Below are positions 9,923 through 53,483 of a DNA stretch of 56,757 nucleotides, piece by piece (position 1 is the first letter of the stretch; the number at the start of each line of letters is the position of its first letter). The DNA lies in the NCBI GenBank assembly GCA_903879765.1, contig CAIRMS010000161.1:1-56757 (forward strand), given 5' to 3'. The notes under the pieces were generated by a model that saw only the letters and a list, made by a program, of their open reading frames with translations, did not search any database and was not told the origin of the DNA. The DNA comes from an uncultured Flavobacteriales bacterium. GTDB lineage: Bacteria; Bacteroidota; Bacteroidia; Flavobacteriales_D; Crocinitomicaceae. The position numbers were made by a program, and so were the translations under genes.

Positions 9923-11082
9923 GTAAAGTGATTGGAGTAATTGGAGCAGGAACTATGGGTTCTGGCATCGCGCAAGTGGCTGCTCAATGTGGGCATTCGG
10001 TTTATTTGATGGATGCGAATGTTGATCAATTGAATCGGGCGAAAACGGGCGTTTCTAAATCCCTCGAGAAATTAGTTGAAAAAGGGAAATTCACTTCTGT
10101 ACAAAAAACGGAGATTGAGTCAAACATTCACTATGTCGCACAATTGGAAGGACTTTCATCTTGCGATTTGATTATCGAAGCAATCGTGGAGAAAATGGAG
10201 GTCAAACACAGTGTTTTTTCGGCTTTGGAGAAAATTGTTTCGGCCGATTGTATTTTGGCAAGCAACACCTCTTCCCTATCCATTGCCTCCATTGGATCTT
10301 CTCTATCAAAAGCAGATCGTGTGATTGGCATTCATTTTTTCAATCCAGCAACGATTATGCCTTTGGTTGAAATTATTCCTGCAGTACAAACCAATGCTCA
10401 GACACTTGAATCATCGGTAGAATTAATTAAAAGCTGGGGGAAAACCGTAGTTGTGTGCAAAGATACTCCTGGGTTTATCGTCAACCGAGTTGCACGTCCA
10501 TTTTACGGCGAAGCACTTCGCATATACGAAGAAGGAATTGCAGATTTTGCAACAATCGATTGGGCGATGACCGAATTTGGCGGATTTAAAATGGGTCCAT
10601 TTACTTTGATGGACTACATTGGAAACGATGTGAATTACGCTGTAACTGAATCCGTATTTCAAGCATTTTACTACGATCCACGTTTCAAACCGTCCTTTAC
10701 TCAAAAACGACACAGTGAAGCAGGATTTTACGGAAGAAAAACGGGACGTGGTTTTTATACTTATGCTGAAGGAACAGTATTTCCGGAACCTAACAAAGAT
10801 CAAATCATTGGAAAAATGATTTTTGAGCGCGTGCTTGTGATGCTCATCAATGAAGCCATTGATGCTGTCTTTATGCAAGTAGCATCCGTGAAAGACGTCG
10901 ATTTAGCCATGACGAAAGGAGTGAATTATCCAAAAGGATTATTGGCATGGGCGGATGAAATTGGACTAGACTGGGTTTTAACAAAGTTGAACGTACTATT
11001 TCATGAGTACGGAGAAGACCGTTACCGTCCAAATGCGCTTCTCAAACGAATGGTAGAAAATGGTGATAAATTTTATTCATAG
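9919..11082 (+). CDS. 3-hydroxyacyl-CoA dehydrogenase (NAD-binding)
   Basis: Rossmann motif GVIGAGTMGSGIAQ with a PGFIVNR motif. ATGA overlap with the upstream hydratase gene. Confidence 0.85.
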   Translation: MSKVIGVIGAGTMGSGIAQVAAQCGHSVYLMDANVDQLNRAKTGVSKSLEKLVEKGKFTSVQKTEIESNIHYVAQLEGLSSCDLIIEAIVEKMEVKHSVFSALEKIVSADCILASNTSSLSIASIGSSLSKADRVIGIHFFNPATIMPLVEIIPAVQTNAQTLESSVELIKSWGKTVVVCKDTPGFIVNRVARPFYGEALRIYEEGIADFATIDWAMTEFGGFKMGPFTLMDYIGNDVNYAVTESVFQAFYYDPRFKPSFTQKRHSEAGFYGRKTGRGFYTYAEGTVFPEPNKDQIIGKMIFERVLVMLINEAIDAVFMQVASVKDVDLAMTKGVNYPKGLLAWADEIGLDWVLTKLNVLFHEYGEDRYRPNALLKRMVENGDKFYS

Positions 11083-39376: not shown

Positions 39377-40093
39377 ATGAAATTAGATATCTTAGCTTTT
39401 GCCGCCCATCCCGACGATGTAGAATTATCTGCATCAGGTACTTTGTTGCATTACGCTGCACAAGGAAAGAAAATCGGAATCATTGATTTAACTGAGGGTG
39501 AATTGGGGACAAGAGGTTCTGTTGCTGATCGCTATGCTGAATCAGCTGCAGCAGTTGAACTCATGGGATTAACTATTCGCAAGAACTTGAACATGGGCGA
39601 TGGATTCTTCGAAGTAAATGAAGTAAACAAACGCAAAATCGTTGAACAAATTCGCATTCATAAACCGGAAATCGTTTTCGCCAATTGCTTGAGCGACCGA
39701 CATCCAGATCATGGACGAGCAGGAAAATTAGTGTCCGATGCATGCTTTCTAGCTGGTTTGCGGAAAATCGAAACAATGGTCGATGGTATTTCTTTGGCGC
39801 CACATCGTCCGAGATTAGTATTGCATTACATTCAAGATCACTACGCCCATCCTGATATCGTCATGGATGTAACACCATTCATGGAACAAAAAATAGAGGT
39901 TATTAAAGCGTTCCGCTCACAGTTTTTCGATCCAAATTCTATCGAACCAACGACGCCAATTTCTGGCGAAGAATTTTTTCAATTCATCAAAGGAAGAATG
40001 ATGCAATATGGACGTCCTATTGGAGTTGATTACGCCGAAGGATTTACAGTTACGCGCATTCTTGGTACGAAAGATCTTTTTGGATTAGTTTGA
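39377..40093 (+). CDS. bshB1: bacillithiol biosynthesis deacetylase BshB1 (PIG-L family)
   Basis: MKLDILAFAAHPDDVELSASGT, GIIDLTEGELGTRGS and HPDHGRAG motifs. Confidence 0.8.
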   Translation: MKLDILAFAAHPDDVELSASGTLLHYAAQGKKIGIIDLTEGELGTRGSVADRYAESAAAVELMGLTIRKNLNMGDGFFEVNEVNKRKIVEQIRIHKPEIVFANCLSDRHPDHGRAGKLVSDACFLAGLRKIETMVDGISLAPHRPRLVLHYIQDHYAHPDIVMDVTPFMEQKIEVIKAFRSQFFDPNSIEPTTPISGEEFFQFIKGRMMQYGRPIGVDYAEGFTVTRILGTKDLFGLV

Positions 40094-40097
40094 GGCT

Positions 40098-40231
40098 AAT
40101 GTGCTAATGACTTAATGTGCTAGTGTGCTGGTTAGTTAATGTGCTAATGTGTTAGTGTGAGTAAGCTATCGGAGCATGTCAGTAGCAAATTAGATCATTG
40201 GCACATTAGTCCATTAGCACATTAGTCCATT
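40098..40231. repeat. octamer array A1: 8 forward units (40098-40161), 22-nt spacer, 6 inverted units (40184-40231)
   Basis: Parsed in unbroken 8-nt phase. Forward: aatgtgct aatgactt aatgtgct agtgtgct ggttagtt aatgtgct aatgtgtt agtgtgag. Inverted: agcaaatt agatcatt ggcacatt agtccatt agcacatt agtccatt. Confidence 0.9.
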
Positions 40232-40236
40232 ATTCC

Positions 40237-40244
40237 TACATTTG
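40237..40244 (+). promoter_or_regulatory. -7 promoter box (TAnnTTTG)
   Basis: TACATTTG starts 6 nt after the inverted arm of A1 and ends 4 nt before ATG 40249. Confidence 0.35.
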
Positions 40245-40248
40245 TACC

Positions 40249-40662
40249 ATGAAATCGCTGATTCTTATTTTCTTAAGTACGCTTTTGTTTCTAGGGAACG
40301 TTGGGATTCCTGTGTTTACACATGCTTGTGAAGAAGATGGCATTTTCACTTCGTTTTTCATTAAGCTGCAAAATCATTGTCAAGAAGAACAGTCGGATTT
40401 ACCTCCTTGCTGTCAAAAAGAAAAAAAGAAGAATTGCTGTCACGATGAGAAAACTGTGGTGCAATTGGATGAGAAATACGTTCTTACACATGCTTTTTCC
40501 GTTCCATTTTTTCACGTTTCATTTACCGCGAATCAGCCTATTTCATTTGATTCATACATACTTCTTTCAGAAGTTGTTTCCATTCAAACATGGGACGACC
40601 CACCTCCGCTGAGGAAATACGGTAAAGAATTACTGATCCAAAACTGCGTTTTTCGTATTTGA
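40249..40662 (+). CDS. small Cys-rich membrane-anchored protein (HYC_CC_PP-family-like)
   Basis: N-terminal TM/signal segment, then THAC, PPCC, NCCHDE and DDPPP motifs. It sits upstream of a TonB-dependent receptor. The family name is recalled from memory, not searched. Confidence 0.55.
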   Translation: MKSLILIFLSTLLFLGNVGIPVFTHACEEDGIFTSFFIKLQNHCQEEQSDLPPCCQKEKKKNCCHDEKTVVQLDEKYVLTHAFSVPFFHVSFTANQPISFDSYILLSEVVSIQTWDDPPPLRKYGKELLIQNCVFRI

Positions 40663-40737
40663 AATTCCAATCATCCATACTCTAAACGGACTTGAAAAAT
40701 CAAGTGTTCGTTGCGTATTCATGATTTAATTTTAGCT

Positions 40738-42932
40738 ATGAAACATTATTTTTTAGGATTTCTCCTCATCTGGATGACCTCCAAAACCAATGCACAAATC
40801 AAAGGAGTTGTTCTACGACAAGACTCCACAAAAACTAGTCCCATTGAAAATGCAAAGATTCGTCTTTCCCATTCAAATCAAGGGGTATTTTCCAACAAGG
40901 ATGGACGATTTGAAATAGTTCTTCCCAAAGTTTTACCGGACACCCTGATCATCAGTGCAATGGGTTACTTATCAGACTCCATTGTGGTGACAAAAAATGA
41001 TCGCTTCGTCGCGTTCACTATTTTACTCATTCCGGTTTCGACGAAAACAGAAATTGTCTATCAACTTCGTAAAAATTCCCATCAGATCTCCAAAATGAAA
41101 ACATTACATGTGGAAGAAATTGGATCGGGAGAATTGCGAAAAGCTGCTTGTTGTAATTTATCTGAATCTTTTGAAACAAACGCTTCTGTCGATGTCAATA
41201 TTACCGACGCAGTTTCGGGTGCCAAAAAATCCAACTGATGGGTCTCGATGGTGTTTACACCCAAATTCAATTAGAAAACATTCCTTATTTGCGCGGACTC
41301 GAAAGTTCTTTTGGACTTCAGTCTATTCCTGGAACTTGGATTGAGTCAATACAAATCACCAAAGGAACAGGAAATGTCGTAAACGGCTATGAATCGATGG
41401 CGGGACTCGTGAATTTAGAAATGAAAAAACCGAGTGAAATGGAAAAATTCTATTTTAACGCCTACCAAAATCGCTTTGGACGCTCTGAAATGAATATGAA
41501 TGCAGGAACCAAAATCAATCAAAAATGGAGCACCGGAATACTGGGTCACGCTTCCTCTATGTTCGGAAATATCGATCATAACATGGATGGATTTCGGGAC
41601 ATTCCAATGGGCGATAACGTCGCTTTGATGAATCGCTGGTCTTTTCAAGGAAAAAAAATGGAAGCGCAATTTGGCTTCAATGTTTACCAAGATCGCAAAA
41701 CAGGTGGGCAAACCACTTTCTACCGAGATAATCCAAACGGATACGGAGTGGTGATGAATTCGCGCCATGCCGATGTTTATGCGAAAACAGGGTTCTTTAG
41801 TAAAAAGCCAATGCGGTCAATTGGTGTAGTTTACAACCTGAAATACCAAGCAATGAATGGCGCATTTGGTATACGTGATTTTCAAGGAGAAGAAAAACGC
41901 GTCTATGTGAATGCGATTTACGACGATATAATTGCAACAAGTGATCATAAAGTTAAACTTGGTGCGAGTTTCGTTGGTCTACAAATCCGTCAGCGAGTAC
42001 AAAATTTGGATCAACGTCGAACAGAAATCGTCCCGGGGATTTTTGGGGAATATACCTATACGGGTTCTCGATTAATCACAGTATTAGGAGCGCGTTACGA
42101 TCAACACTTCACCTATGGCGGACAATTCTCGCCTCGAATTCATGCGAAATATGCCTTAACCCAGCGAGCAGATCTACGCATTACGGCTGGAAAAGGTTGG
42201 CGTGTACCAAACTACATGATTGACAATATTTCACTTTTAGCGAATTCCAAAACCTGGATTGCTCCATCGGAAATCAAACCGGAAATATCATGGAATGCTG
42301 GAATTTCTTTAGTGAAAGATTTTACCGTTCTCGAAAAAAATGGGAATATCAGCTTGGACTTCTATCATACACTTTTTCAAAATCAGTTGATTGTTGATCG
42401 TGATGCTGCATTGGATGCGATTGTCTTTCAAAATCTTGCAAACTCATCTTACTCAAATAGTTTTCAGTTAGAAATGTCGTATTCACCCACTAAGAACTTC
42501 GAACTTCGATTTGCCTACAAACATTTAGATGTGAAGGCGTTGTACGATGGTGTAATGCGTCAACAAGTGATGATTCCGAAGAACCGTGGATTCGTTAATC
42601 TCGCCTACCGAACGCGAAATAAACGCTGGGAATTCGATGCTACATGTACGATTTACGGCTCGGGACGTTTACCTGTCATTCTTCAAGCGTCGGGTCTAGA
42701 ACAGCATGATGAACAAAGTTCAGTGTATCCTATGGTCAACTCACAAATTACGCATATTTACAAAAAATGGAATTTTTACCTTGGTGGCGAAAATTTAGCG
42801 AACTTTAGACAATTGAATCCGATTATTGATGCCCAGAATCCTTTTGGAAGTTCCTTCGATGCAAATAGAGTTTGGGGTCCGATAATGGGTTGGAATGTTT
42901 ATGCGGGACTTAGGTATGCGATGAAGGGTTAA
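40738..42932 (+). pseudogene. TonB-dependent receptor (CarboxypepD_reg, plug, barrel) interrupted by a 1-nt frameshift
   Basis: ORF 40711..41238 ends ...TDAVSGAKKSN* and ORF 41238..42932 starts in the plug (MGLDGVYTQIQLENIPYL...). One extra A in the A6 run 41224-41229 would fuse them as ...GAKKIQLMGLDG... ATG 40738 gives a signal peptide. Confidence 0.8.
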
Positions 42933-43079
42933 TGCCCTAGTGTGCTAGTTTGCTAATGTGCTAATTGATTAATGTGCTAATGGACTAATGTGCTAATGTG
43001 CTAATTAATCAATGTGCTAATTTGCCGATGGACTAATGTGCTAGTTACTTAATGTGCTAGTTTAATGTGCTCATGTGGA
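42931..43079. repeat. octamer array A2: 16 forward units in phase (42931-43058), a 5-nt slip, then 2 more units
   Basis: aatgccct agtgtgct agtttgct aatgtgct aattgatt aatgtgct aatggact aatgtgct aatgtgct aattaatc aatgtgct aatttgcc gatggact aatgtgct agttactt aatgtgct. There is no inverted arm. Confidence 0.9.
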
Positions 43080-43118
43080 GGAGAGATAGTGAGAAATGAA
43101 TACTTTTTAAATTTATAT

Positions 43119-43454
43119 ATGATGAAAACAATAACCTTAAGTCTATTCTTTGTGCTATTCAGCGCGCTAAGTTTTGGGCAAAAATCAATGACGAGTCAAA
43201 TTCAGACGAATGCGCAATGTGGTGATTGTAAGGAACGAATCGAAGGGAAATTAAACTATATAAAAGGAATCAAATTTGCAGAACTCGATGACCAGACGAA
43301 AATTGTTACTGTTAAATACGACCCGAGTAAAATTGAACTTCTGACGATCAAGCAAACAATTGCGAAAATTGGTTATGATGCCGATGAGGTGAAAGCGGCT
43401 AAAGAAGACGTGGAGAAATTACCGAAGTGTTGTCAGCCGAATGGACATGAATAA
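43119..43454 (+). CDS. secreted heavy-metal-associated (HMA) domain protein
   Basis: ATG 43119 gives a signal peptide (MMKTITLSLFFVLFSALSFGQ). Has the CGDC metal-binding motif, a ferredoxin-like HMA pattern and a C-terminal CC pair. The track N-terminus reads out of array A2. Confidence 0.8.
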   Translation: MMKTITLSLFFVLFSALSFGQKSMTSQIQTNAQCGDCKERIEGKLNYIKGIKFAELDDQTKIVTVKYDPSKIELLTIKQTIAKIGYDADEVKAAKEDVEKLPKCCQPNGHE

Positions 43455-43564
43455 TGTGCTAATGTGTTAGTTAACTAATGTGCTAATTAACTAATGTGCT
43501 AATGTGCTAATTAACTCATGTGCTAATTAACTTATGGGTTGATGTGCTATTAGACGGGTGTGCT
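43453..43564. repeat. octamer array A3: 14 forward units in phase
   Basis: aatgtgct aatgtgtt agttaact aatgtgct aattaact aatgtgct aatgtgct aattaact catgtgct aattaact tatgggtt gatgtgct attagacg ggtgtgct. It lies between convergent genes. Confidence 0.9.
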
Positions 43565-43589
43565 TCAGCGGAATAAAGAGATATGAGCT

Positions 43590-45425
43590 TTAATCTACGA
43601 TCGTGATGCGTTTCCGTTGTGATCCAATTAAAACGTAGTACATTCCTGGTTGGATTCCTTCTAGATTGATCTGTGTCGAGAAGGTTCCGGAACGTAATTC
43701 TGATCCATTCAAATCGTATAATCGGAAGATTCCAGGAGAAATTCCACTGATGTTCAAGGACTGATTTTCGTTAAGAGGATTTGGATAAACTAAAAACGTT
43801 TCTTCGTATTCGTTCAGCCCTGAATCTACAATGGTCAAATCTATGGTAACTGTGCTATCACAACCATAAATACTCGTGAAAAATTGAGTGTGTAACGCCG
43901 ACGTTGTGTATTCCTGTCCATTCCATGTAAATACATCAAAAACAGTTGAGTCAATTAGCGTACTTGTTATTGGATGAATGGTTAAATTCAAAGCAACAGT
44001 AGAATCGCATCCAGAAATACTTTGTAAGGAATCAATGTATACACCACTTTGCCAAAATGATTGACCATTCCAGCTAAAACTACCACAAGCACTTTCGGTC
44101 ACATTAGTGGTGTATGCTTGGACTACCGTTAAATTTAGTGATACGATAGAATCACATCCAGACATACTTTGCAAGGTATCAATGTAAACACCACTTTGTG
44201 AAAACGATTGTCCATTCCAAACAAAATTTCCACAAGCGCTTTCGTTTACATTGATATTGTAGGCTTGAACAATAGTTAAATTCAAGACAACCGTCGAATC
44301 ACATCCCCAGACAGTTGTTCCCTGAAAAGGATATGTTCCACTTTGAGTGTACGTTTGTCCGTTGAAGCTATAGGAATTACAAGAAGAAACATTCAGTGTA
44401 TTTGCATAGGCTAAATGCTGATTGATACTTAACACCACCGCTGGACTTTGTCCGCAGGTATTTTGTGCAAGAACGCTCACTGTACCACTCACAAAACTTG
44501 GGCTAAACAATAAATTGAGTGTTGTTCCGATGCTGCTTCCCGTTGCACCATTGGGGGTTGTCCATACATAGGAAGTTGCACCACTTACGGGCGTAATCGT
44601 ATACGATTCTGATCCATCATAGCAAAAGTGTGCCGCACCTGTAATTCCCGTTGGGGAAGATGGTGCTGTATTTATGACAACAGTTACTGCTAATCGATTA
44701 GTGGATTCTACACCGCTCACTGTTTGAGATGCATAATATGTTGTTCCATTGTTCAGAACCGAAGTTCCATTTAAAGGCGTTCCACCTGTAGCACTTGCAT
44801 ACCATTGAATAGACGTTCCTGTTGCCGATAATTGGGAAAGCACAGCGCCAGTACAAAAGGTTTGTGTAGAAGATCCTGTTGGTGCCGCTGGTGTAGGTGG
44901 TGGCGGGACCAAAGTGAAATTCGCAGTGGTAATTCCACGATTAGAAGATCCGTGGTAACTATAACTAAAACCATTACTTCCTGCTCTCGCCCAAATTAGG
45001 CCTAGTGAACCTGTGGAAGCGGTAAAAATATGGTCGTTCGCATCTCCTGTATTTAAAGCTCTTGTAGCAATAACCGTTCGAACACCTGATGCAACTGCGT
45101 CACTAACAATGGTCCAGTTTTGCTGTGGATCTGCAGTTGGAGCGGAATATCCTCCTATACTTGCATCAAAGGAGTTCAATGTTCCAGAGGTGTGAACCCC
45201 AACAACATCCTCTCCATTACCCATACTCGTTGCATTAAAACCAAGTGCAAACCATCTCGCAGAAGGTCCTGTTAGGGTTAGTGTCACTTGAGTACCGACA
45301 TCGATTTTTGCCGTCATAGCTAATCCTGCGGTAGAACTCAAACTAACAACACCTGTTGTATATGTTTGGGCTTTAACAATGGTCGCCGCAAATAAAAGAA
45401 TCAGAAATAATAGGTTATTTTTCAT
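43590..45425 (-). CDS. T9SS-secreted surface protein (N-terminal DOMON-like domain, Ig-like region, 4 tandem Cys-containing repeats, T9SS C-terminal sorting domain)
   Basis: Signal peptide, then four copies of the C..(Y/F).WNGQ.(Y/F)..SG.Y....S..GCDS.V.LNLT(I/V) repeat. C-terminal LVYPNPLNE...GMYYVLIGSQRKRITIVD sorting domain. Confidence 0.8.
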   Translation of the reverse strand: MKNNLLFLILLFAATIVKAQTYTTGVVSLSSTAGLAMTAKIDVGTQVTLTLTGPSARWFALGFNATSMGNGEDVVGVHTSGTLNSFDASIGGYSAPTADPQQNWTIVSDAVASGVRTVIATRALNTGDANDHIFTASTGSLGLIWARAGSNGFSYSYHGSSNRGITTANFTLVPPPPTPAAPTGSSTQTFCTGAVLSQLSATGTSIQWYASATGGTPLNGTSVLNNGTTYYASQTVSGVESTNRLAVTVVINTAPSSPTGITGAAHFCYDGSESYTITPVSGATSYVWTTPNGATGSSIGTTLNLLFSPSFVSGTVSVLAQNTCGQSPAVVLSINQHLAYANTLNVSSCNSYSFNGQTYTQSGTYPFQGTTVWGCDSTVVLNLTIVQAYNINVNESACGNFVWNGQSFSQSGVYIDTLQSMSGCDSIVSLNLTVVQAYTTNVTESACGSFSWNGQSFWQSGVYIDSLQSISGCDSTVALNLTIHPITSTLIDSTVFDVFTWNGQEYTTSALHTQFFTSIYGCDSTVTIDLTIVDSGLNEYEETFLVYPNPLNENQSLNISGISPGIFRLYDLNGSELRSGTFSTQINLEGIQPGMYYVLIGSQRKRITIVD

Positions 45426-45939
45426 CGGATTTAAATATTTTGTTAAGCTTTTCGTCGTTATATAAAATCAAAAGTTCCTTGATGGATTTTCCATTTTGAT
45501 CAAGAATTTTCATGTTTGGATTTCCCATTAACATTCTTTCTACCAACTCATACCTTCTTAGACTCATAGCAAAATGTAACGGTGTTCCAAATTGAGAAAA
45601 TTGACAAGTATCGTTCAAAGAAACACCCTTTTGAAGTAAAAGTTCGAAAATCTCAAGGTTATTTTTATAAATCACTCCATAAACTGCAGAACCTTCTGTA
45701 AAACATGTTTTAATATCTGCGCCACGTTCCACTAAAAGTTTAGCCACCTCGTTATTTCCGCGGTAAGCAGCTAGTAAAAATGGAGATAATCCTTGCTCAG
45801 AAAGTTGATTGACCTGATTAGGTTGTTCATCCAAAAGCTTTTTCATCGCGACAACATCTCCTGTACGTGCTATTTCGTGAATTGATTGCCCGTAAGATAC
45901 AACGCTGAGGAATAGAGAAATGAATAGTAACTTAATCAT
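45415..45939 (-). CDS. secreted ankyrin-repeat protein
   Basis: Signal peptide (LSVVSYGQ) and ANK consensus (SPFLLAAYRGNNEVAKLLVERGADI, TPLHFAM). 11-nt overlap with the downstream T9SS gene. Confidence 0.85.
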   Translation of the reverse strand: MIKLLFISLFLSVVSYGQSIHEIARTGDVVAMKKLLDEQPNQVNQLSEQGLSPFLLAAYRGNNEVAKLLVERGADIKTCFTEGSAVYGVIYKNNLEIFELLLQKGVSLNDTCQFSQFGTPLHFAMSLRRYELVERMLMGNPNMKILDQNGKSIKELLILYNDEKLNKIFKSDEK

Positions 45940-45956
45940 TGTGTAAAAATAAGGAT

Positions 45957-46274
45957 AATGTGCTAATGATTTAATGTGCTAATGATTTAATGTGCTAATG
46001 GCTTAGTGTGCTAGTTGTCCAATGTGCTAATGTGCTAGTTGTCCAATGTGCTAATTGCTTAGTGTGCTAGTTATTTAATGTGCTAATTTGCTAATTGCTT
46101 AATGTGCTAGTTATTTAATGTGCTAATTTGCTAATTGCTTAATGTGCTAGTTATTTAATGTGCTAATGTGCCAGTTAGACAATGTGCTAGTTGTTTTATT
46201 TCGTGGCGGGAGCACATTAATCCATTGGTAAATTAGCACATTAGATCATTGCTACATTAGTACATTGATACATT
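45957..46274. repeat. octamer array A4: 30 forward units in unbroken phase (45957-46196), 14-nt spacer, 8 inverted units (46211-46274)
   Basis: Parsed by eye with no indel over 240 bp. Contains an exact 40-bp duplication (46077-46116 = 46117-46156) and a 16-bp duplication (45957-45972 = 45973-45988). It sits in the divergent region between the ankyrin operon and purF. Confidence 0.92.
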
Positions 46275-46279
46275 ATCAC

Positions 46280-46287
46280 TATCTTTG
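46280..46287 (+). promoter_or_regulatory. -7 promoter box (TAnnTTTG) for purF
   Basis: TATCTTTG starts 6 nt after the inverted arm of A4 and lies 20 nt upstream of ATG 46307. Confidence 0.4.
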
Positions 46288-46306
46288 CCGCAAACTTAAA
46301 CGAACC

Positions 46307-48208
46307 ATGAGTGATCCGATAAAACATGAATGTGGAATAGCTCTTTTAAGGCTGAAAAAACCTTTGGAATATTACCTGGAAAAGTACGGTACGGCACTGT
46401 ATGGCATCAACAAGATGCACCTACTCATGGAAAAACAACACAATCGTGGTCAAGATGGCGCTGGAATCGCGAATATTAAGTTCGATATGGAACCGGGACA
46501 ACGGTACATTTCTAGAACACGATCCATAAAAAAGAATCCAACACAGGATATTTTTGATCAAATCAATGGGAAATTCCAACAAATTCAACAAGAAAATCCT
46601 GCCCATCTGAAGGATGTTAATTACCTAAAACAAAATGCTGGATTCACTGGAGAATTGTTTTTGGGACACCTTCGTTACGGAACTTTTGGACGAAACTCCA
46701 TTGAAAGTTGTCACCCATTTTTACGTCAAAACAACTGGATTACTCGCAACTTGGTTGTGGCTGGAAATTTCAATTTAACAAACGTCGACGAGTTGTTTCA
46801 AAACTTGGTCAACTTGGGTCAACATCCGAAAGAAAAAAGTGACACAGTAACGGTTTTAGAAAAAATAGGCCATTTCCTTGATGTAGAGAATGACGACTTA
46901 TATGCTCATTACAAATCACTTGGCTATTCTAAAGATCAAATATATGCTCGCATCGCGAAAGAAGTTAATTTGGTTAAGATCTTGAAAAAAGCATCCGAAG
47001 TTTGGGATGGTGGATATGCCATGGCAGGGCTACTTGGTCATGGTGACGCATTTGTCTTACGAGATCCAAATGGCATTCGTCCGGCATTTTGGTATGAAGA
47101 TGATGAAATTTGTGTTGTTGCATCTGAACGACCAGTGATTCAAACTGCCTTCAACTTAACCAGTGATCAAATCCATGAACTTCAACCGGGACACGCATTA
47201 ATCGTGCGCAAAAACGGTGAAGTAAAAGAAGAGATGATTAATGCTCCTAGAGAGATTAAAAAATGTTCTTTTGAACGCATCTATTTCTCCCGCGGATCAG
47301 ATACTGACATTTACAAAGAACGAAAAGCTTTAGGAAGACTAATCGTTGATCAAGTACTAAGGACGGTTAATCACGATTTCGACAATAGTGTATTTTCATT
47401 CATTCCAAATACAGCAGAAGTTTCCTTTTACGGATTGATCAAAGGATTGGAAGAGAATTTGAATCAACAAAAAATCAAGCAAATTCAAACGCTTGGAAAA
47501 GATGCGAGTACAGAACAGCTAGCAGAAATCATCAACCGTCGTGCACGTATCGAAAAGATTGCAATTAAGGATGCCAAGTTGCGTACCTTCATCACACAAG
47601 ATGACTCACGTGACGATCTTGTTGCGCATGTATATGACATTACCTATGGAAGTGTGCGTCCAGGAACAGATAACCTCATCGTAATTGATGATAGTATCGT
47701 ACGTGGAACAACTTTAAAACAAAGTATCTTACGAATTCTTGATCGTTTGTCACCGAAGAAAATCGTTGTTGTTTCGTCTGCACCTCAAATTCGTTACCCG
47801 GATTGTTATGGAATCGATATGGCGAAAATGGGTGATTTCATCGCATTCGAGGCCGCTATTCAATTGTTGCGTGACCGAAAAATGGACCGTGTAATAAAAG
47901 AAGTATACGAAAAATGTATAGAGCAAGTAAACCTACCAAAGGAACAAGTTCGGAATTTCGTGAAAGAAATTTATGCGCCATTCAGCAACGAAGAAATTTC
48001 CGCGAAAATTGCTGAATTGTTGACTCCTCCGACGATCAAAGCGGAAGTTGAAATCGTTTTCCAAACAGTAGAAAACCTACACATTGCTTGTCCAAATCAC
48101 CTTGGAGACTGGTACTTCACAGGAGATTATCCAACACCTGGTGGAAACAAAGTGGTGAATAAGGCATTTATCAATTGGGTAGAGAAGAGGAACGAGCGAG
48201 CATATTAA
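46307..48208 (+). CDS. purF: amidophosphoribosyltransferase (long Bacteroidota-type class II glutamine amidotransferase)
   Basis: MSDPIKHEC|GIA Ntn-Cys after a short propeptide, and the PRPP-binding motif LIVIDDSIVRGTT. ATG 46307 is preferred over the track extension that reads out of array A4. Confidence 0.88.
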   Translation: MSDPIKHECGIALLRLKKPLEYYLEKYGTALYGINKMHLLMEKQHNRGQDGAGIANIKFDMEPGQRYISRTRSIKKNPTQDIFDQINGKFQQIQQENPAHLKDVNYLKQNAGFTGELFLGHLRYGTFGRNSIESCHPFLRQNNWITRNLVVAGNFNLTNVDELFQNLVNLGQHPKEKSDTVTVLEKIGHFLDVENDDLYAHYKSLGYSKDQIYARIAKEVNLVKILKKASEVWDGGYAMAGLLGHGDAFVLRDPNGIRPAFWYEDDEICVVASERPVIQTAFNLTSDQIHELQPGHALIVRKNGEVKEEMINAPREIKKCSFERIYFSRGSDTDIYKERKALGRLIVDQVLRTVNHDFDNSVFSFIPNTAEVSFYGLIKGLEENLNQQKIKQIQTLGKDASTEQLAEIINRRARIEKIAIKDAKLRTFITQDDSRDDLVAHVYDITYGSVRPGTDNLIVIDDSIVRGTTLKQSILRILDRLSPKKIVVVSSAPQIRYPDCYGIDMAKMGDFIAFEAAIQLLRDRKMDRVIKEVYEKCIEQVNLPKEQVRNFVKEIYAPFSNEEISAKIAELLTPPTIKAEVEIVFQTVENLHIACPNHLGDWYFTGDYPTPGGNKVVNKAFINWVEKRNERAY

Positions 48209-48343
48209 TGTGCTAATGTGCTAATTGTCTAATGTGCTATTGACCTAATGGGCTAATTTGCTAGTTGTTTAATGTGCTAATTGTCTAATGTGCTATGGTT
48301 ACAATGTGCTAGTTGTTTTAATGTACTGATGTGCTTATATGCT
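48207..48343. repeat. octamer array A5: 14 forward units in phase (48207-48318), a 1-nt slip, then 3 more units
   Basis: aatgtgct aatgtgct aattgtct aatgtgct attgacct aatgggct aatttgct agttgttt aatgtgct aattgtct aatgtgct atggttac aatgtgct agttgttt, then aatgtact gatgtgct tatatgct. Confidence 0.9.
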
Positions 48344-48418
48344 GGTGGAGTTCCTATTGATTTTGATGATTATGTGACGTTTAGAGAATAAAATTCAACT
48401 TCTTGCGTTAAATGATTC

Positions 48419-48769
48419 ATGACTGATTCTAAGAACCCATTACTCACTAAATCTTTTGATTTTGCACTATTGATTGTGTCGTTTTGTCAAGAGTTACAAT
48501 CCCAAAGAAGTTACGTTATTGCACATCAACTGTTGAAATCAGGTACTTCTGTTGGAGCAAATATTCGTGAAGCTCAGCATGCAGAGTCTAGAGCGGATTT
48601 CATTCACAAACTGAAAATTGCCTCCAAGGAATGTGAGGAAACAACCTATTGGCTCGAAATCTGTCAAGCAAGTTATCCCATGAATTGTGATACACTCATT
48701 AACGAATCACTCCAAATCGGTAAACTACTCAGTCGCATCATCTCCACTGCAAAACGAAATAGATCCTAA
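48419..48769 (+). CDS. four-helix-bundle protein (23S rRNA intervening-sequence protein / Avd-like family)
   Basis: 116 aa with the GTSVGANIREAQHAESRADFIHKLKIASKECEETTYWLEI signature of the family. Confidence 0.85.
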   Translation: MTDSKNPLLTKSFDFALLIVSFCQELQSQRSYVIAHQLLKSGTSVGANIREAQHAESRADFIHKLKIASKECEETTYWLEICQASYPMNCDTLINESLQIGKLLSRIISTAKRNRS

Positions 48770-48816
48770 ACTAATTGGCAAATTAGTCCATTAGTCCATT
48801 AGCACATTACTCCATA
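48769..48816. repeat. octamer array A6: about 6 inverted units
   Basis: aactaatt ggcaaatt agtccatt agtccatt agcacatt actccata. It begins on the last base of the TAA stop of the four-helix-bundle gene. Confidence 0.8.
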
Positions 48817-48842
48817 ATCCCTACTTTTATAAAAAATTAAAC

Positions 48843-50045
48843 TTGTCACTTATCTACTCCTTTTTTATTCGATGCTACGGCGTGTTGATTCACGTTGCTT
48901 CTCGGTTCAATCCGAAGGCGAAGGCCTGGGTAGAAGGACGACAACAATGGCAAGAGAAATTACGGAAACAAATTCCAAAGGAACGCAAGGTGTTGTGGTT
49001 TCATTGTGCTTCGCTAGGCGAGTTTGACCAGGGGTCACCCTTGATGAAGTCTATGAAGGAAGCCGACCCAAGTTTATTCCTATTGGTAAGTTTCTTCTCT
49101 CCATCGGGAATGGAACATTACCAAAAACGTGAAAAAATCGTTGATGCTGCTTGCTACCTTCCGCTGGACACACTCCAAAATGCACGGACGTTTGTCCAAA
49201 TAGTACAGCCACAAAAAGCGGTTTTCGTGAAATATGAATTCTGGCCAAATTTCCTTAGAGCTTTGGATGAAAATAACATCGAAACAGTAGCTGTATCGGC
49301 AATTTTCCGTCCCTCACAGCTCTATTTTCGTTGGTACGGTGGATTTTTCAGAAAGGCATTGAAACGCATTCATCATTTTTACGTGCAAAACGAAGAAAGT
49401 GCGAAGTTATTGAAATCGATAGGTATTCATCAAAGCACAGTTTCTGGCGACATGCGTTACAAACGTGTGGTACAAGCGAAGGAAATAGCAATGCAGACTA
49501 CCAATGAACTTCTTGCATGCTTTACCTCGGGTTCCATTACACTCATACTTGGGAGTTCTTGGCCTAAAGAGGAAGAAATCGTGTGTACGGCTTTTCCGGA
49601 GCTCGGAGCAACTAAATTGATCATCGCTCCACACGATGTGAGCGAGCAGCATATTGCATCCATTCAAGCAGCGTTTCCTTCAGCTTTGCGCTATACTCAG
49701 TTAGAAGTGCGTCGTGATGAACAGCAACTTTTGGATGCCCAGATCCTAATCATCGATTGCATTGGACAATTAAGTGCCGCTTACCGCTATGGAACAATTG
49801 CTTTTATCGGCGGTGGTTTTACCGGAAGTCTACACAATATCCTAGAACCTGCCGTTTATGGACTACCACTCCTATTTGGTCCAAAACATAGAAAATTTCC
49901 CGAAGCAGATTTATTTCTTGAAAAAGGCTTCGCCCTTGAGGTTAACAATCCCACAGATTTTCACAAAGCGTTCAACTCGCTACTTACTAAAGTATCTTCA
50001 CTGCGTCCAGAAATGGAATCGTTTGTTGAAAGTCAAATTGGTTAA
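48843..50045 (+). CDS. waaA: 3-deoxy-D-manno-octulosonic acid (Kdo) transferase
   Basis: N-terminal anchor, RFNPKAKAWVEGR and WFHCASLGEFDQGSPL motifs. TTG start, with no nearby in-frame ATG. Confidence 0.88.
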   Translation: MSLIYSFFIRCYGVLIHVASRFNPKAKAWVEGRQQWQEKLRKQIPKERKVLWFHCASLGEFDQGSPLMKSMKEADPSLFLLVSFFSPSGMEHYQKREKIVDAACYLPLDTLQNARTFVQIVQPQKAVFVKYEFWPNFLRALDENNIETVAVSAIFRPSQLYFRWYGGFFRKALKRIHHFYVQNEESAKLLKSIGIHQSTVSGDMRYKRVVQAKEIAMQTTNELLACFTSGSITLILGSSWPKEEEIVCTAFPELGATKLIIAPHDVSEQHIASIQAAFPSALRYTQLEVRRDEQQLLDAQILIIDCIGQLSAAYRYGTIAFIGGGFTGSLHNILEPAVYGLPLLFGPKHRKFPEADLFLEKGFALEVNNPTDFHKAFNSLLTKVSSLRPEMESFVESQIG

Positions 50046-50258
50046 TGTGCTAATGGACTAATGTGCTAATGGACTAATGTGCTAATATGCTAATTGGCTA
50101 ATGTGCTAATGGACTAGTTGCTTAATTTGCTAATGGACTAATTTGCTTGTTGATTGATGTTCTAGATACTTTCAGGCGCAGTGGAAATCCAATGGGCACA
50201 TTAGTACATCGAATCATTAGCACATTGATTAATTAACACATTGAATCATTAGCACATT
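50044..50258. repeat. octamer array A7: about 15 forward units (50044-50163), 31-nt spacer, 8 inverted units (50195-50258)
   Basis: Forward: aatgtgct aatggact aatgtgct aatggact aatgtgct aatatgct aattggct aatgtgct aatggact agttgctt aatttgct aatggact aatttgct... Inverted: ggcacatt agtacatc gaatcatt agcacatt gattaatt aacacatt gaatcatt agcacatt. Confidence 0.9.
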
Positions 50259-51018
50259 AATTATAATAATAATCCTTCGGCTGCTTCGAGTAAAATGGGA
50301 TGTACCAACCAATGCGAATACCTGTCTGAAGATCGAGGCGCAAAGCGGTGGACACAGGAATGTCCGGTTGGTCGTAGTTGATGGTGCGACGATTATACGT
50401 CAGACCTTGTTGGCAGTAGATACCTGCATAAAAGTTTAATGGTCCCCCATTGTTGAGGAAGGAATAACCTACAAACTGATGGAAGTTGATTCCGGTAGTC
50501 ATTCGGTCGTAGCCACGTTTGTATGTTAATTCGATTTGGGGAACCACTTGATCGTTGGTTTCGATGCGTAAGTGATGTAACAAGTAACCTGCGCCAGCGT
50601 GAACAAGAATTCCTGAATTGGCGTTTTTCTTTCCAGTTGGAAATAAGCGTCCAACGCTGAAGTTCGCATTAAATCCACGTGGAAAAACGAGGACGGTCGC
50701 CTTGGTTCCATTGACATCTGTAATGTTACCCTTGTCATCTAATAAGTGATCAAAGATTCCATTCATTTTAACGTTGTTGCCAAAGATGAAATTCGCATCA
50801 ACGCCGAAATACCATTGGCTTTGAAGTTTGTATCCTGCAGAAAAGCCAAGGTTATTGAGATAACCATATCTCGCTAATAAATCTCCGCCTGGTAGATTTC
50901 CTCCCCAATGAATTCCAACTAGAGGTGTGCTTATTGATTCATTTTTCACTTCTCCTTGTGCAAAAACAAGGTATTGCATTGAAAATACTAAACCGATTAA
51001 AACACTAAATATTTTCAT
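50257..51018 (-). CDS. outer-membrane beta-barrel protein of unknown function, co-transcribed with wzc
   Basis: Signal peptide (QYLVFAQ), alternating beta-strand pattern, and ATGA overlap with wzc. Confidence 0.5.
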   Translation of the reverse strand: MKIFSVLIGLVFSMQYLVFAQGEVKNESISTPLVGIHWGGNLPGGDLLARYGYLNNLGFSAGYKLQSQWYFGVDANFIFGNNVKMNGIFDHLLDDKGNITDVNGTKATVLVFPRGFNANFSVGRLFPTGKKNANSGILVHAGAGYLLHHLRIETNDQVVPQIELTYKRGYDRMTTGINFHQFVGYSFLNNGGPLNFYAGIYCQQGLTYNRRTINYDQPDIPVSTALRLDLQTGIRIGWYIPFYSKQPKDYYYN

Positions 51019-53483
51019 TTTCTCTTTCTAAGAAATCGTGAGTACATGCTAAAAATGAAACCTCTATTTTGTTTTGGAGAATCTAAATATTCGTTTCCAT
51101 AACCATAGCCGTAGCCGTATCCATATCCTGAACCATATCCATATCCTGAGCCATAACCGTAACCATAACTCGATTTTTTCATATCTACAGCATTAACTAA
51201 ACACGCCATTTTAGCGAATTTTTTGTCTTGGTACAAACTTGCTGGTAAATTCAACATACCGCAATCAATCAATTCAGCACGAACAACATAGATTACCATA
51301 TCTGCAAGTTTACTAATGTGTAAGGAATCTGAAACCAAGGCCACAGGAGCTGTATCTAGGATAACATAATCATATTTTTTTCTAGCTTCTGAGATAAGTT
51401 GTGTTAATCTATCTCGCATAAGTAATTCTGTTGGATTCGGAGGGATATCACCAGAAATGATGTAACTAACATTTGGATTTCCAGGATCTTTTATCGTTAG
51501 ATCATCAAACGTTAAATCTGGATTCACGATATAATTGGTTACCCCAACAGTGTGATTCATATCAATGTAACGTGCAATTTTCGGCGCTCGTAAATCTAAA
51601 CCGATAATTACCGCCGTTTTATTACCTTGAGCTAAGGTGTGGCAAAGATTAATCGAGATAAATGTTTTACCCTCTTTGGCGATGGATGATGTTACTAAAA
51701 TCACTTTTGCTTCATGTTGATCTTCATCAATCATAAAGTTCAGATTGGAACGAACCATGCGGAATGCTTCGGCAATATGGGTGCGCGCATTCTTGGTTAT
51801 GACAATTTTTCTTTGATCCTCGGGTCCTTTTGGAATTTCACCTAACACTGGAAGTTTAAACTTGAGTAAATCTTGTGATCCGTGTACTTTTGTGTCTAAT
51901 AGATTACGTAGGTAAACAACTGCTATTGGGAATAGTAATCCGAGTAAAAAACTAGCCAAATAAATGACACTTCTTTTAGGTGAGATTGGATTAATATTTG
52001 TGTTTGGTTCTTGTATGATTTTTGTATTACCAATGGACGAAGCCGCCTTAATTTCGTTTTCTTCGCGTTTTTGTAATAAAAAGACATACAACGTTTCCTT
52101 AATTTGCTGCTGACGCTCTATATCTCGGTATTCACGCTCGAATCCTGGAACAGCAGCAATTCTTCCTTCGTAACGATTTACCTGGTCATTTAATGACTTT
52201 ATTGTTATTCTTATACGCGATTCTGTTGAACGAAGTCCTTCTGTTAAGGAATAACGAAGTCCTTCAATCTGATCATCAATTTTTTGAATACTTGGATTTT
52301 TATTGCTGGATGTTTTTGACAATCGAAGTCGGTCCAAAACCAAGCGATTGTATTGAGCCGTTATTGCCACAACACTTTCATCCTCAAAACCGAGATTTGC
52401 TGGAAGCAATTCTCCTGGATTTACATTTTTCCGCATGTACTCCTCCAAATATTGGCAAAGATTTAATTGAACGGATTGGGTTATCAATTCCTTTTCGATT
52501 TCATCTCTTTTGGCAACAAATGATTGTCCATCCGTTAAAACATCAACGATTTCATGACGTGACTTAAAATTCTCTGCACTTTTCTCGACGTCACTCAATT
52601 CATCTGACAAGAAGCGCATGCGTTCATTTATGAAATCACTCGTATTTCGGGCAATTTGACTTTGATCTTTTATTTTTTCCTCCTTGTGGAATTGCATCAT
52701 AGACCAAATGATGTCTTCGTTTTTCTCAACGACGGGACCTTTGATTGTGATATCCACCAAATCAGATCCACGGTCTTTGCTATCAGGCATGGATAATTCG
52801 ATTATCGAATTGAGTTCTTCGACAACCATTTTCAATGGACGCAATTGAATGATAAACTCATCCTCAATAAAATACCTCCAAAAATTAGTGGTTTTTTCAA
52901 CTTTAACAATACCCGTTTTCGTTACGATAGGAGTTCCAAAAAGGTAAGTGCCGATTTTATTCTTTTCTCCTTCAACCAATTCAAATTTCGTTTTGGAAAG
53001 TATGCGAATGCGGAATTCGGCTTTAACATCTCTCCAAGTTGAATCCATCTTTAATGGGACAATAAAAAACGGCTCAACTTTATATACATCCGTTTTACGT
53101 ATCCCTGTTCTTCTACCGAGGATATACGTTCGTTGCTGTAAGTGTAGTTTTTCTGAAATTCCGGATAAAATGCCCGGTGTTTTCATCATAGCCATTTCAT
53201 TTCCTAACTTACTCCCTTGTGGACCGACACCCAAAGCAGAGAACATAGACAATTCTTCCATCACATTCTCTTCTTGATCATGGAATAGAATCTGCGCCTT
53301 TGTTTCAAAGATATTTGTGCTGTATCGTAGGTAAACGTATGAAGAAAATAAAGCGATTCCTATTGACAATAAAAACCAGGGCCAAATGCGTAAATAGCGA
53401 AATAAAATCCCTTTTAGTTGAACCGTTCCTTGGTCCTCAAGATCCATATCGAAGTTTCCCTCTGATTTTGTTTCTAAACTCAT
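51015..53483 (-). CDS. wzc: polysaccharide co-polymerase / tyrosine autokinase (Wzc-like)
   Basis: Two TM segments flank a coiled-coil Wzz-like domain. C-terminal kinase P-loop SSIAKEGKT, Walker B YVILDTAP, and the terminal Tyr cluster SSYGYGYGSGYGYGSGYGYGYGYGYGNEY. Confidence 0.9.
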   Translation of the reverse strand: MSLETKSEGNFDMDLEDQGTVQLKGILFRYLRIWPWFLLSIGIALFSSYVYLRYSTNIFETKAQILFHDQEENVMEELSMFSALGVGPQGSKLGNEMAMMKTPGILSGISEKLHLQQRTYILGRRTGIRKTDVYKVEPFFIVPLKMDSTWRDVKAEFRIRILSKTKFELVEGEKNKIGTYLFGTPIVTKTGIVKVEKTTNFWRYFIEDEFIIQLRPLKMVVEELNSIIELSMPDSKDRGSDLVDITIKGPVVEKNEDIIWSMMQFHKEEKIKDQSQIARNTSDFINERMRFLSDELSDVEKSAENFKSRHEIVDVLTDGQSFVAKRDEIEKELITQSVQLNLCQYLEEYMRKNVNPGELLPANLGFEDESVVAITAQYNRLVLDRLRLSKTSSNKNPSIQKIDDQIEGLRYSLTEGLRSTESRIRITIKSLNDQVNRYEGRIAAVPGFEREYRDIERQQQIKETLYVFLLQKREENEIKAASSIGNTKIIQEPNTNINPISPKRSVIYLASFLLGLLFPIAVVYLRNLLDTKVHGSQDLLKFKLPVLGEIPKGPEDQRKIVITKNARTHIAEAFRMVRSNLNFMIDEDQHEAKVILVTSSIAKEGKTFISINLCHTLAQGNKTAVIIGLDLRAPKIARYIDMNHTVGVTNYIVNPDLTFDDLTIKDPGNPNVSYIISGDIPPNPTELLMRDRLTQLISEARKKYDYVILDTAPVALVSDSLHISKLADMVIYVVRAELIDCGMLNLPASLYQDKKFAKMACLVNAVDMKKSSYGYGYGSGYGYGSGYGYGYGYGYGNEYLDSPKQNRGFIFSMYSRFLRKRK

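Follow-up and report, generated by a model that had tools for sequence, protein, structure and literature searches.

Octamer repeat arrays around and beyond a PF05635 gene in a Flavobacteriales contig: probable arms of selfish cassettes resembling rRNA intervening sequences

Intervening sequences (IVS) in 23S rRNA genes are considered to be selfish elements that were acquired horizontally and for which no mobility enzyme is known, and in Coxiella copy-variable GACAGAT heptamers are found just before the S23p open reading frame (ORF), within the terminal-repeat stem that is cut by RNase III (PMC4990558). Another class of sequences, intergenic arrays of heptamers, has been described for GGGAATC in Xanthomonas and GGGGA(C/T)T in Nostoc and Anabaena, often as convergent pairs (PMC4692102), and for TAACTGA in Beggiatoaceae, Cyanobacteria, and Bacteroidetes (PMC4679880). 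Such short-unit intergenic arrays, e.g., the short tandemly repeated repetitive (STRR) sequences, GGGAATC, GGGGATT, and TAACTGA, have been catalogued since 1990 with no agreed origin or function, and for the ORF of the rRNA IVS an explanation has likewise been lacking since 1993. Here, we analysed a stretch of 56,757 nucleotides from an uncultured Flavobacteriales bacterium (contig CAIRMS010000161.1; hereafter the window), in which seven arrays of an 8-nt unit, named A1 to A7, lie between 40098 and 50258 and two of them enclose a gene of family PF05635, to which S23p also belongs. [quoted passage not shown]

The gene-bearing element of the window consists of A5 (48207..48343), a forward arm of about 17 octamers on the plus strand, the cassette gene (48419..48769, plus strand), and A6 (48769..48816), an inverted arm of 6 octamers on the minus strand that is complementary to A5. 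The deduced 116-aa protein is a four-helix-bundle protein of the S23p and Avd-like family with matches to PF05635 (E = 2.5e-22), TIGR02436 (E = 1.4e-27), and PDB entry 2RLD (E = 2.9e-25), a B. thetaiotaomicron protein that was deposited with five chains; the family annotation reads "23S rRNA intervening-sequence protein" or "four helix bundle protein". Comparison with four relatives revealed 16:3 to 30:4 synonymous to non-synonymous differences, i.e., purifying selection, and judging from this excess of synonymous changes the predicted protein is functional. A PADLOC search with the protein resulted in no match and so gave no membership in a defence system. The initial annotation of the window had reported that no transposase or integrase lies nearby, and indeed none was found in the array region or in syntenic relatives (no transposase within ±8 kb in the latter), but it had overlooked the PF05635 gene between A5 and A6. 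The duplex of A5 with A6 was calculated at −47.4 kcal/mol compared to −17.4 ± 3.5 kcal/mol for shuffled A6, and in a fold of the whole cassette 37 bases of A5 were paired with A6.

Compared with the 23S rRNA IVS with S23p ORF of Coxiella burnetii and Leptospira, the cassette shares the protein family, an ORF enclosed by stem-forming terminal inverted repeats and, with the Coxiella IVS in particular, short tandem repeats of variable copy number right upstream of the ORF. It differs in its position between purF and kdtA rather than at the tip of an rRNA helix, in arms built wholly of phased 8-nt units, and in the many gene-less copies; moreover, RNase III excision was demonstrated for the IVS and is only a candidate process for the window element. 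Rfam at gathering thresholds gave 0 matches in the window, hence no rRNA, and tRNA or tmRNA genes were also not found there. The family is furthermore homologous to Avd, an accessory protein of diversity-generating retroelements (PMC10053308), but neither a reverse transcriptase nor template or variable repeats were found by the window gene or among the listed neighbours of arrays.

The association of gene and arrays was not restricted to the window. In a protein-anchored sample of 80 metagenome loci encoding relatives of the window protein at 45–60% identity, all with protein-coding, ORF-dense flanks and not rRNA, short-period tandem repeats were located at most 400 nt from the gene in 75 loci, with a period of 8 nearly throughout. 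Repeats covered 13.0% of the bases up to 250 nt from the ORF versus 0.85% beyond 400 nt. In 56 of the 72 loci with two flanks, the upstream side carried three or more in-phase RATKTG units in forward and the downstream side in inverted orientation; the opposite arrangement was present in 5. Both arms agreed at the variable unit positions 7–8 in 30 of these 56 loci, while 11 were expected (maximum of 20 in 2000 shuffles), and in about half of the cases in which array and ORF closely abut, the start codon is the in-phase ATG of the next unit. The commonest unit of these loci was AATTTGAA. The octamer AATGTGCT, presented in the initial annotation as a special core, is strongly over-represented in the window but represents just one variant of the broader unit RATKTGNN. 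At two loci (L086, 4125–4544, and L092, 190–579), the called PF05635 ORFs extend into a downstream 9-nt array, resulting in a QSNQSNQSN... tail.

PF05635 genes on plasmids were examined in Nostoc, Anabaena, Dolichospermum, Planktothrix, Treponema, and Bernardetia, and all eight were flanked by tandem arrays of short units, mostly heptamers, including TAATTCG, CAATTCG, AATTCAA, AATCCCC, and TTAGTGA. Most of these copies have a downstream array that is reverse-complementary to the upstream array, e.g., (TAATTCG)4.7 ... (CGAATTA)4.7. Two of the array-bounded genes are situated within defence operons, namely between cas2 and cas1 on plasmid pANACY.01 of Anabaena cylindrica (L235, 680–1027) and between the DISARM gene drmD and an MmeI-type enzyme on plasmid p1 of Planktothrix agardhii (L237, 674–1033).

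In the window itself, the core AATGTGCT occurs in 44 copies, of which 43 lie within 40098–50258, compared to 2.9 ± 1.7 expected from shuffles. Stretches with a self-identity of ≥0.58 at lags 8, 16, or 24 were confined to the seven places, and the only other lags giving such stretches (6, 12, and 18) belonged to an unrelated coding hexamer repeat. Tandem Repeats Finder detected arrays with periods of 8, 16, 24, or 40 at the same seven places, and a position-weight detector recovered 10 arms where the initial annotation had placed them and 0 in shuffled sequence. Core counts, self-identity, and the detector thus bear out the seven phase-locked arrays, and the lag and weight-matrix scans agree that the rest of the window is free of them. 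Phased by hand, the arms comprise 129 octamers, very close to the earlier estimate of about 130, with the earlier sizes of single arms deviating by no more than one or two units. In 42 units the core is exact, and A at position 1 (116/129), T at position 3 (125/129), and T at position 8 (108/129) are nearly fixed. The phase was said to be kept without indels within an arm; this holds, including the 240 nt of A4, apart from two small slips, since the last core of A2 (43064) is 5 nt off phase and the end of A5 is shifted by +1. The 16-nt super-period, in which strong and weak units alternate, proved to be real in the window as well as in 70 long arrays from other genomes, in which the unit identity was 0.80–0.85 at even and 0.75–0.76 at odd unit lags. 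A4 additionally contains a recent duplication of a 40-nt block.

Apart from A5 and A6, three arrays consist of a forward arm on the plus strand, a short loop, and an inverted arm on the minus strand. In A1, 8 octamers (40098..40161), starting 4 nt past the stop codon of a PIG-L gene, pair with 6 octamers (40184..40231) over a 22-nt loop; in A4, 30 octamers (45957..46196) are separated by 14 nt from 8 octamers (46211..46274); and in A7, about 15–16 octamers (50036..50163) are followed by a 31-nt loop and 8 octamers (50195..50258). A2 (42931..43071, about 17 octamers) and A3 (43453..43564, 14 octamers) are single forward arms on the plus strand. Altogether, arrays fill all but one of the eight intergenic gaps between 40094 and 50256. 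Since the unit junctions read T|AA and T|AG and 8 is not a multiple of 3, the reading frames are closed across the arrays, and the earlier argument that they are non-coding holds. Five gene stop codons are even made by the first or last array junction, so that these arrays begin exactly where the coding sequence ends. The first T|AA junction serves as the stop codon of the TonB-receptor gene at A2 (42930–42932), the HMA gene at A3 (43452–43454), purF at A5 (48206–48208), and kdtA at the A7 forward arm (50043–50045), and the last unit of the A7 inverted arm (50257–50259) provides that of the convergent gene 50257–51018. The purF product has 633 aa both in the window and in array-free relatives. 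Two further features of the units were recorded. By eye, they are similar to the Bacteroidota −7 motif TAnnTTTG but shifted by one base against it. In AATGTGCT arms (e.g., 42987–43002), the core together with the following AA spells ATG-TGC-TAA, and stop and start codons overlap as UAAUG once per 8 nt, which could permit repeated termination and re-initiation of translation; as the commonest unit AATTTGAA has no ATG, this is not a general explanation.

The published heptamer arrays, including the STRR sequences of Calothrix, agree with the window arrays in many respects. Both are organised head to tail, are intergenic, lie near the end of the 5' neighbour in either orientation and seldom between divergent genes, form convergent pairs capable of stem-loops, and combine a conserved position with variable length and a patchy distribution that suggests horizontal transfer. 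In comparison, the window unit has 8 instead of 7 nt and the alternating 16-nt super-period. The repeat was initially not recognised as belonging to a described REP/BIME/MITE family. The octamer sequences themselves (searched as 13- to 16-mers) were not found in the literature outside subscription journals, so that an earlier description is possible there, but intergenic heptamer arrays were already published as a class. Both heptamer papers (PMC4692102 and PMC4679880) interpret their repeats as formers of G-quadruplexes or as sites for translational regulators, and a term search of the two texts revealed no associated gene. The link to PF05635 and the phage carriers of short-unit arrays shown here are absent from these two papers as far as such a search reaches, and a connection of PF05635 with flanking repeats was not found in the literature outside subscription journals either.

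For the distribution of the arrays, one genome per species was scanned with a pattern of three cores spaced by 16 nt, which specifies 24 bases and for which about 0.004 chance matches are expected. The AATGTGCT pattern was detected at no fewer than 118 loci, nearly all of them in Bacteroidota. Among the matches listed, to which the following counts on gene context and arms also refer, the arrays belonged to Chitinophagales, Saprospiraceae, Flavobacteriales, Bacteroidales, Cytophagales, and Sphingobacteriales, with isolates such as Phocaeicola intestinalis, Adhaeribacter, Hymenobacter, Rufibacter, Longitalea, and Flaviaesturariibacter, and few beyond Bacteroidota (Ignavibacteria, Chlorobiota, and Verrucomicrobiota). 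Matches in Methanosarcina and Dolichospermum turned out to be unrelated 16-nt tandem repeats containing the core and were excluded. A PF05635 gene was present in 10 of the 118 loci listed, in 8 of these at most 135 nt from an array. Among 78 small ORFs adjoining arrays, PF05635 was matched seven times and was the sole Pfam family matched more than once, the other families listed beside arrays being housekeeping singletons.

The 150 array clusters are nearly all intergenic, with 68 in tandem, 27 in convergent, and 9 in divergent context (9/104). For 167 gene 3' ends facing an array, the stop codon is inside the array in 54 cases and not more than 10 nt away in another 28. A complementary partner within 250 nt was found on the 3' side of 39 of 113 arms and on the 5' side of none, so the order of paired arms is always 5'-(AATGTGCT)n...(AGCACATT)m-3' (39/39). 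The reverse order would fold equally well, and hairpin formation alone therefore cannot account for this rule. The fixed polarity fits what terminal inverted repeats give.

In three relatives with purF 95–98% identical (L075, L230, and L231), the arrays are retained at the same sites, but their numbers of units differ strongly. A4 comprises 30+8 units in the window, 14+12 in L230, and 22+4 in L231, while A6 has 6, 15, and 4 units, respectively. Three indels of exactly 8 nt distinguish the window from L075, and in L231 the A1 inverted arm was lost. In two relatives at 85% purF identity, the genes are shared, the gaps are tight, arrays as well as the PF05635 gene are absent, and the gene order differs from that of the window at six of the seven array sites. 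Based on this absence and on the variable unit numbers in the close relatives, the arrays entered the lineage and then changed length fast.

Some further observations concern the same comparison. In the window, kdtA has the same direction as purF, while in the array-free L232 (9899–11149) and L233 (9899–11188) it is convergent with and overlaps purF; the inverted kdtA block of the window (48769–50258) is bounded by the A6 inverted arm and the A7 forward arm. Breakpoints of synteny with L232 coincide with six of the seven arrays, and the arrays may either promote rearrangement or mark it. Identity between the window (46789–47788) and L075 is mosaic, with 98–100% in the middle of purF, 74–90% nearby, and about 60–70% past 51 kb, which suggests recent recombination between related lineages. 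Finally, a G-rich motif similar to TTTTATTACGTGGCGGRAG is common to several hairpin apices or inner array edges of the window lineage (window, 46196–46211; L230, 2092–2114 and 7850–7873; L231, about 10480–10510), a hint that A1, A4, and the cassette arms may be paralogous copies. As a universal apex motif, GYGGNGGA after forward arms was rejected, with counts of 13 vs 4 in the window lineage and 21 vs 21 elsewhere.

In IMG/VR, the array pattern was identified at 30 loci, mostly from one metagenome. Their carriers are true tailed phages with genes for terminase, portal, protease, capsid, tail, and lysin, and they are related to Bacteroides phage Bacuni_F1. In Bacuni_F1, which encodes Avd and a reverse transcriptase, the genes abut with no arrays, while its metagenomic relatives harbour 5–6 forward-loop-inverted hairpins per 10 kb, located in gaps that are absent from Bacuni_F1. 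One unique loop was found at no fewer than five sites in both orientations within a phage segment of 12.8 kb (L127). A whole AATGTGCT-type hairpin is present in L122 and L135 and absent from L120, L137, and L144, with an ambiguous target duplication of at most 4 nt; a hairpin of the GTTGACGA type is present in L142 and absent from L145 and L119, with a clean 9-bp target duplication. Array-rich phages also hold hairpins with 7-nt (TTAGGGA-like) or 9-nt (GAGTTTAAT) arms. Examples with telomere-like TTAGGGA/TTAGTGA, GAGTTTAAT, or other 8-nt arms (GTTGACGA/GTTAACAA), some with inserts in their loops, are located at L121 4683–4892, L144 9356–9587, L127 3322–3555, L123 6543–6694, L142 4720–4896, and L124 6268–6419.

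Among the candidate roles initially listed, remnants of a small palindromic mobile element fit this evidence best. A full element has the form 5'-(RATKTGNN)n – PF05635 four-helix-bundle ORF – (NNCAMAYT)m-3', represented in the window by A5, the cassette gene, and A6; A1, A4, and A7 are gene-less hairpins and A2 and A3 single arms. Such elements would enter intergenic DNA, mostly right after stop codons, and would travel between genomes with phages as one vehicle. Arrays would then lengthen and shorten in 8-nt steps through slipped-strand mispairing until coding sequence bounds the gap, and they would be tolerated because stop codons at every unit junction leave no frame open across them. The position of the arrays at gene 3' ends and in few divergent gaps fits tolerated insertions. 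By analogy with the 23S rRNA IVS, we infer that the arms would pair in the transcript or in single-stranded DNA, so that the insert may be processed out, possibly by RNase III, or folded away and the neighbouring genes be spared. The PF05635 protein would be the element's own nucleic-acid-binding factor. Of this scheme, the anatomy, the association with the gene, the distribution, the changes in length, and the presence/absence alleles are observed, while the mechanism of movement, pairing or RNase III processing of the RNA, and binding of the protein to the arrays are inferred.

A wider proposal is put forward only tentatively, and we regard it as rather doubtful. It would unite stand-alone PF05635 (S23p/Avd-like) genes and their bounding arrays of 7–9-nt units, from Bacteroidota to Cyanobacteria, spirochaetes, and gamma-proteobacteria, as one previously unrecognised kind of element. 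Its protein would read the element's own arms, in the form of RNA or single-stranded DNA, and would help them to be copied, spread, or processed with no classical transposase involved. The rRNA IVS, the heptamers of Cyanobacteria and Xanthomonas, and the octamers would then have a common origin, again with phages as one vehicle.

Several elements of known type resemble the proposed ones in part. A1, A4, and A7 have the terminal inverted repeats around a short non-coding core that are typical of MITEs, and phage L127 shows the same internal sequence at unrelated sites, whereas the loops of A1, A4, and A7 differ. An autonomous transposase element with the same ends was found neither among the listed neighbour families nor within ±8 kb in the relatives, and the sole recurrent neighbour, PF05635, is not a known transposase. 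MITEs that fold in transcripts, such as the Correia elements of Neisseria (also called NEMIS, for Neisseria miniature insertion sequences), are small, non-autonomous, palindromic, and intergenic, and they are often co-transcribed; the ends of Correia elements are formed by unique inverted repeats of 26 bp, accompanied by a TA duplication. Presence/absence alleles and the lack of a cognate transposase within the element are common to both. Differences are the open-ended tandem arrays of variable length that form the arms of the window elements, the frequent single arms, and the ambiguous duplication of the AATGTGCT family. Foldback (FB) transposons of Drosophila possess long terminal inverted repeats made of variable numbers of tandem short repeats, and a coding loop is found in some of their copies but not in most. 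As these are eukaryotic, have far larger units and arms, and provide no evidence of homology, they are an analogy only.

A number of points weigh against selfish cassettes and their derivatives. Neither a transposase nor an integrase nor a reverse transcriptase was tied to the arrays in the listed neighbour families or in the loci of the relatives, which means that no route of array movement is known. Recent transposition of gene-bearing cassettes was not seen among the 80 metagenome loci, where only two pairs shared a coding sequence with ≥85% identity, both at orthologous sites. About two thirds of the genome arms are solitary, which is unusual for MITEs. The sole filled/empty allele of the AATGTGCT family came without a clear target duplication (4 nt at most), and presence/absence could also result if a palindrome was precisely deleted. 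Between A1, A4, and A7, the loops are not alike, and the shared G-rich apex motif is lineage-specific and weak. That arm lengths vary independently and that the A1 inverted arm was lost in L231 argues against strong selection for the stem. Furthermore, G-U pairs favouring the sense strand were considered as a sign of selection at the RNA level, but for gene-flanking arms pairing was 40 in sense versus 29 in antisense (p = 0.2), which is not significant and leaves a function at the RNA level without direct support. Lastly, a pure model in which any stem will do does not account for a RATKTG core that is nearly constant across Bacteroidota.

The arrays might alternatively be host-beneficial RNA elements similar to repetitive extragenic palindromic (REP) sequences or bacterial interspersed mosaic elements (BIMEs), i.e., hairpins kept by selection that would act in transcripts as protectors of 3' ends, RNase III sites, or attenuators and so adjust the expression of adjacent genes. 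The hairpins are very stable (A1, −61 kcal/mol, z = −7.2; A7, −74.4 kcal/mol, z = −5.9), in line with the earlier statement that forward and inverted arms can pair. They are mostly at gene 3' ends and seldom between divergent genes, are retained at orthologous sites in four related genomes, and are numerous between the late genes of compact phage genomes, where they resemble the RNase III sites of phage T7. We nevertheless consider such a benefit unlikely. The relatives with the same genes manage without arrays, arm lengths drift independently up to the loss of one arm, and pairing showed no strand asymmetry. Most genome arms are single, with mixed orientation to the upstream gene (41 antisense vs 27 sense), and an apparent preference of gene-less hairpins for antisense was traced to which of the two arms is the longer and to phage copies that are not independent of each other. 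A role as terminators, which had also been suggested, was rejected, since the hairpins are not followed by U-tracts, single arms occur in either orientation, and phage hairpins sit inside late operons among the genes for protease, portal, and capsid; none of the predicted terminators falls on an array, and T-runs after the hairpins were not found. Thus, the window arrays lack the defining features of intrinsic terminators, in which a U-tract comes after a short GC-rich stem, and equally those of CRISPR arrays: as noted early on, the unit is too short, and the octamers are contiguous, as opposed to repeats of about 23–50 nt with unique spacers of similar size. A REP unit, for its part, is a 20–40-nt palindrome tagged GTAG or CGTC (PMC3733652). 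REP/BIME sequences with their REP-associated tyrosine transposases (RAYT) resemble the arrays in being abundant palindromic repeats of intergenic regions at the 3' ends of genes, with a small gene family that recurs beside them, but the window unit is a non-palindromic octamer, and a Y1/HUH transposase was not among the listed neighbour families.

A distinctly unlikely alternative is that the arrays are plain minisatellites that arose in place by strand slippage, PF05635 being a separate mobile ORF that favours hairpin loops and repeat tracts as it does the tips of rRNA helices. Slippage had been among the initial candidates, and in fact the orthologous arrays differ by exact 8-nt steps and by large changes in unit number. 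In addition, one 9-mer hairpin of a phage has grown in place from 2+4 to 9+10 units, gene-less arrays are far more numerous than gene-bearing ones, and slippage of the polymerase was given as the cause of the excess of heptamers in bacteria (Mrazek 2007, cited by PMC4679880 and PMC4692102). In contrast, origin in place does not agree with one unit consensus recurring across the phylum and beyond, with the forward-then-inverted polarity that has 0 exceptions in 39 paired arms, or with arrays that abut the ORF exactly, the start codon being in unit phase in roughly half of the close-abutting cases. Moreover, whole hairpins with a unique loop recur at several phage sites, and presence or absence concerns the hairpin as a whole.

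It seems quite improbable that the arrays mainly serve as a multivalent platform for binding of the PF05635 protein, or of a host factor, with a cellular role in regulation, defence or anti-defence, or organisation of the nucleoid or RNA, although an iteron-like platform had been among the initial candidates. Avd is reported to form homo-pentamers and to bind nucleic acid, and the five chains of the homologue 2RLD, the purifying selection on the protein, the conserved RATKTG core, the matching of arms at variable positions, and the copies inside cas2–cas1 and DISARM operons would all agree with such a platform. However, a 40-nt periodicity, as it would suit a five-subunit protein and five units, was only seen in the window through the one recent duplication in A4 and was absent from 70 other long arrays. 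Furthermore, a period of 8 nt is out of step with the helical repeat of duplex DNA, the lineages have widely different unit sequences, and the protein is without a PADLOC match. An assembly or sequencing artefact, for which only the general difficulty of assembling repeats and the probable origin of the window from a metagenome-assembled genome could be put forward, is hardly conceivable, as the same arrays were found at the same sites in the three independent assemblies L075, L230, and L231, arrays also occur in isolate genomes and long-read assemblies, and an equivalent architecture exists on cyanobacterial plasmids from complete genomes.

With the selfish cassettes and their gene-less derivatives as the preferred explanation, the added value of this analysis is the link of IVS-type cassettes with short-unit intergenic arrays across phyla and into phages. 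One gene family bounded by such arrays with fixed polarity in at least four phyla joins two puzzles in one testable hypothesis, in which the gene-less arrays, phage copies included, behave like non-autonomous offspring of PF05635 cassettes. In practice, the arrays mark rearrangement-prone sites of variable length that break short-read assemblies; they also supply stop codons to their neighbours and can be mistaken for regulatory motifs.

Apart from the cassette gene, the genes of this part of the window are ordinary Bacteroidota housekeeping genes, encoding a PIG-L deacetylase, a TonB-dependent receptor, an HMA protein, a DOMON/PKD protein sorted by the type IX secretion system (T9SS), an ankyrin protein, an amidophosphoribosyltransferase (purF), and a Kdo transferase. 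Judging from homologues of purF, the organism belongs to Crocinitomicaceae within the order Flavobacteriales. The TonB-dependent receptor is represented by two overlapping ORFs (40711–41238, 175 aa, and 41238–42932, 564 aa), while L230 and L231 possess one gene of 730–732 aa, and the split reflects either a frameshift, i.e., a pseudogene, or a sequencing error. Two coding repeats are unrelated to the octamers, namely a 147-nt tandem repeat of 2.2 copies in the gene for the DOMON/PKD surface protein (43977–44306) and a CCATAA-type repeat of 6 or 18 nt (51097–51169) in the ORF starting at 51015.

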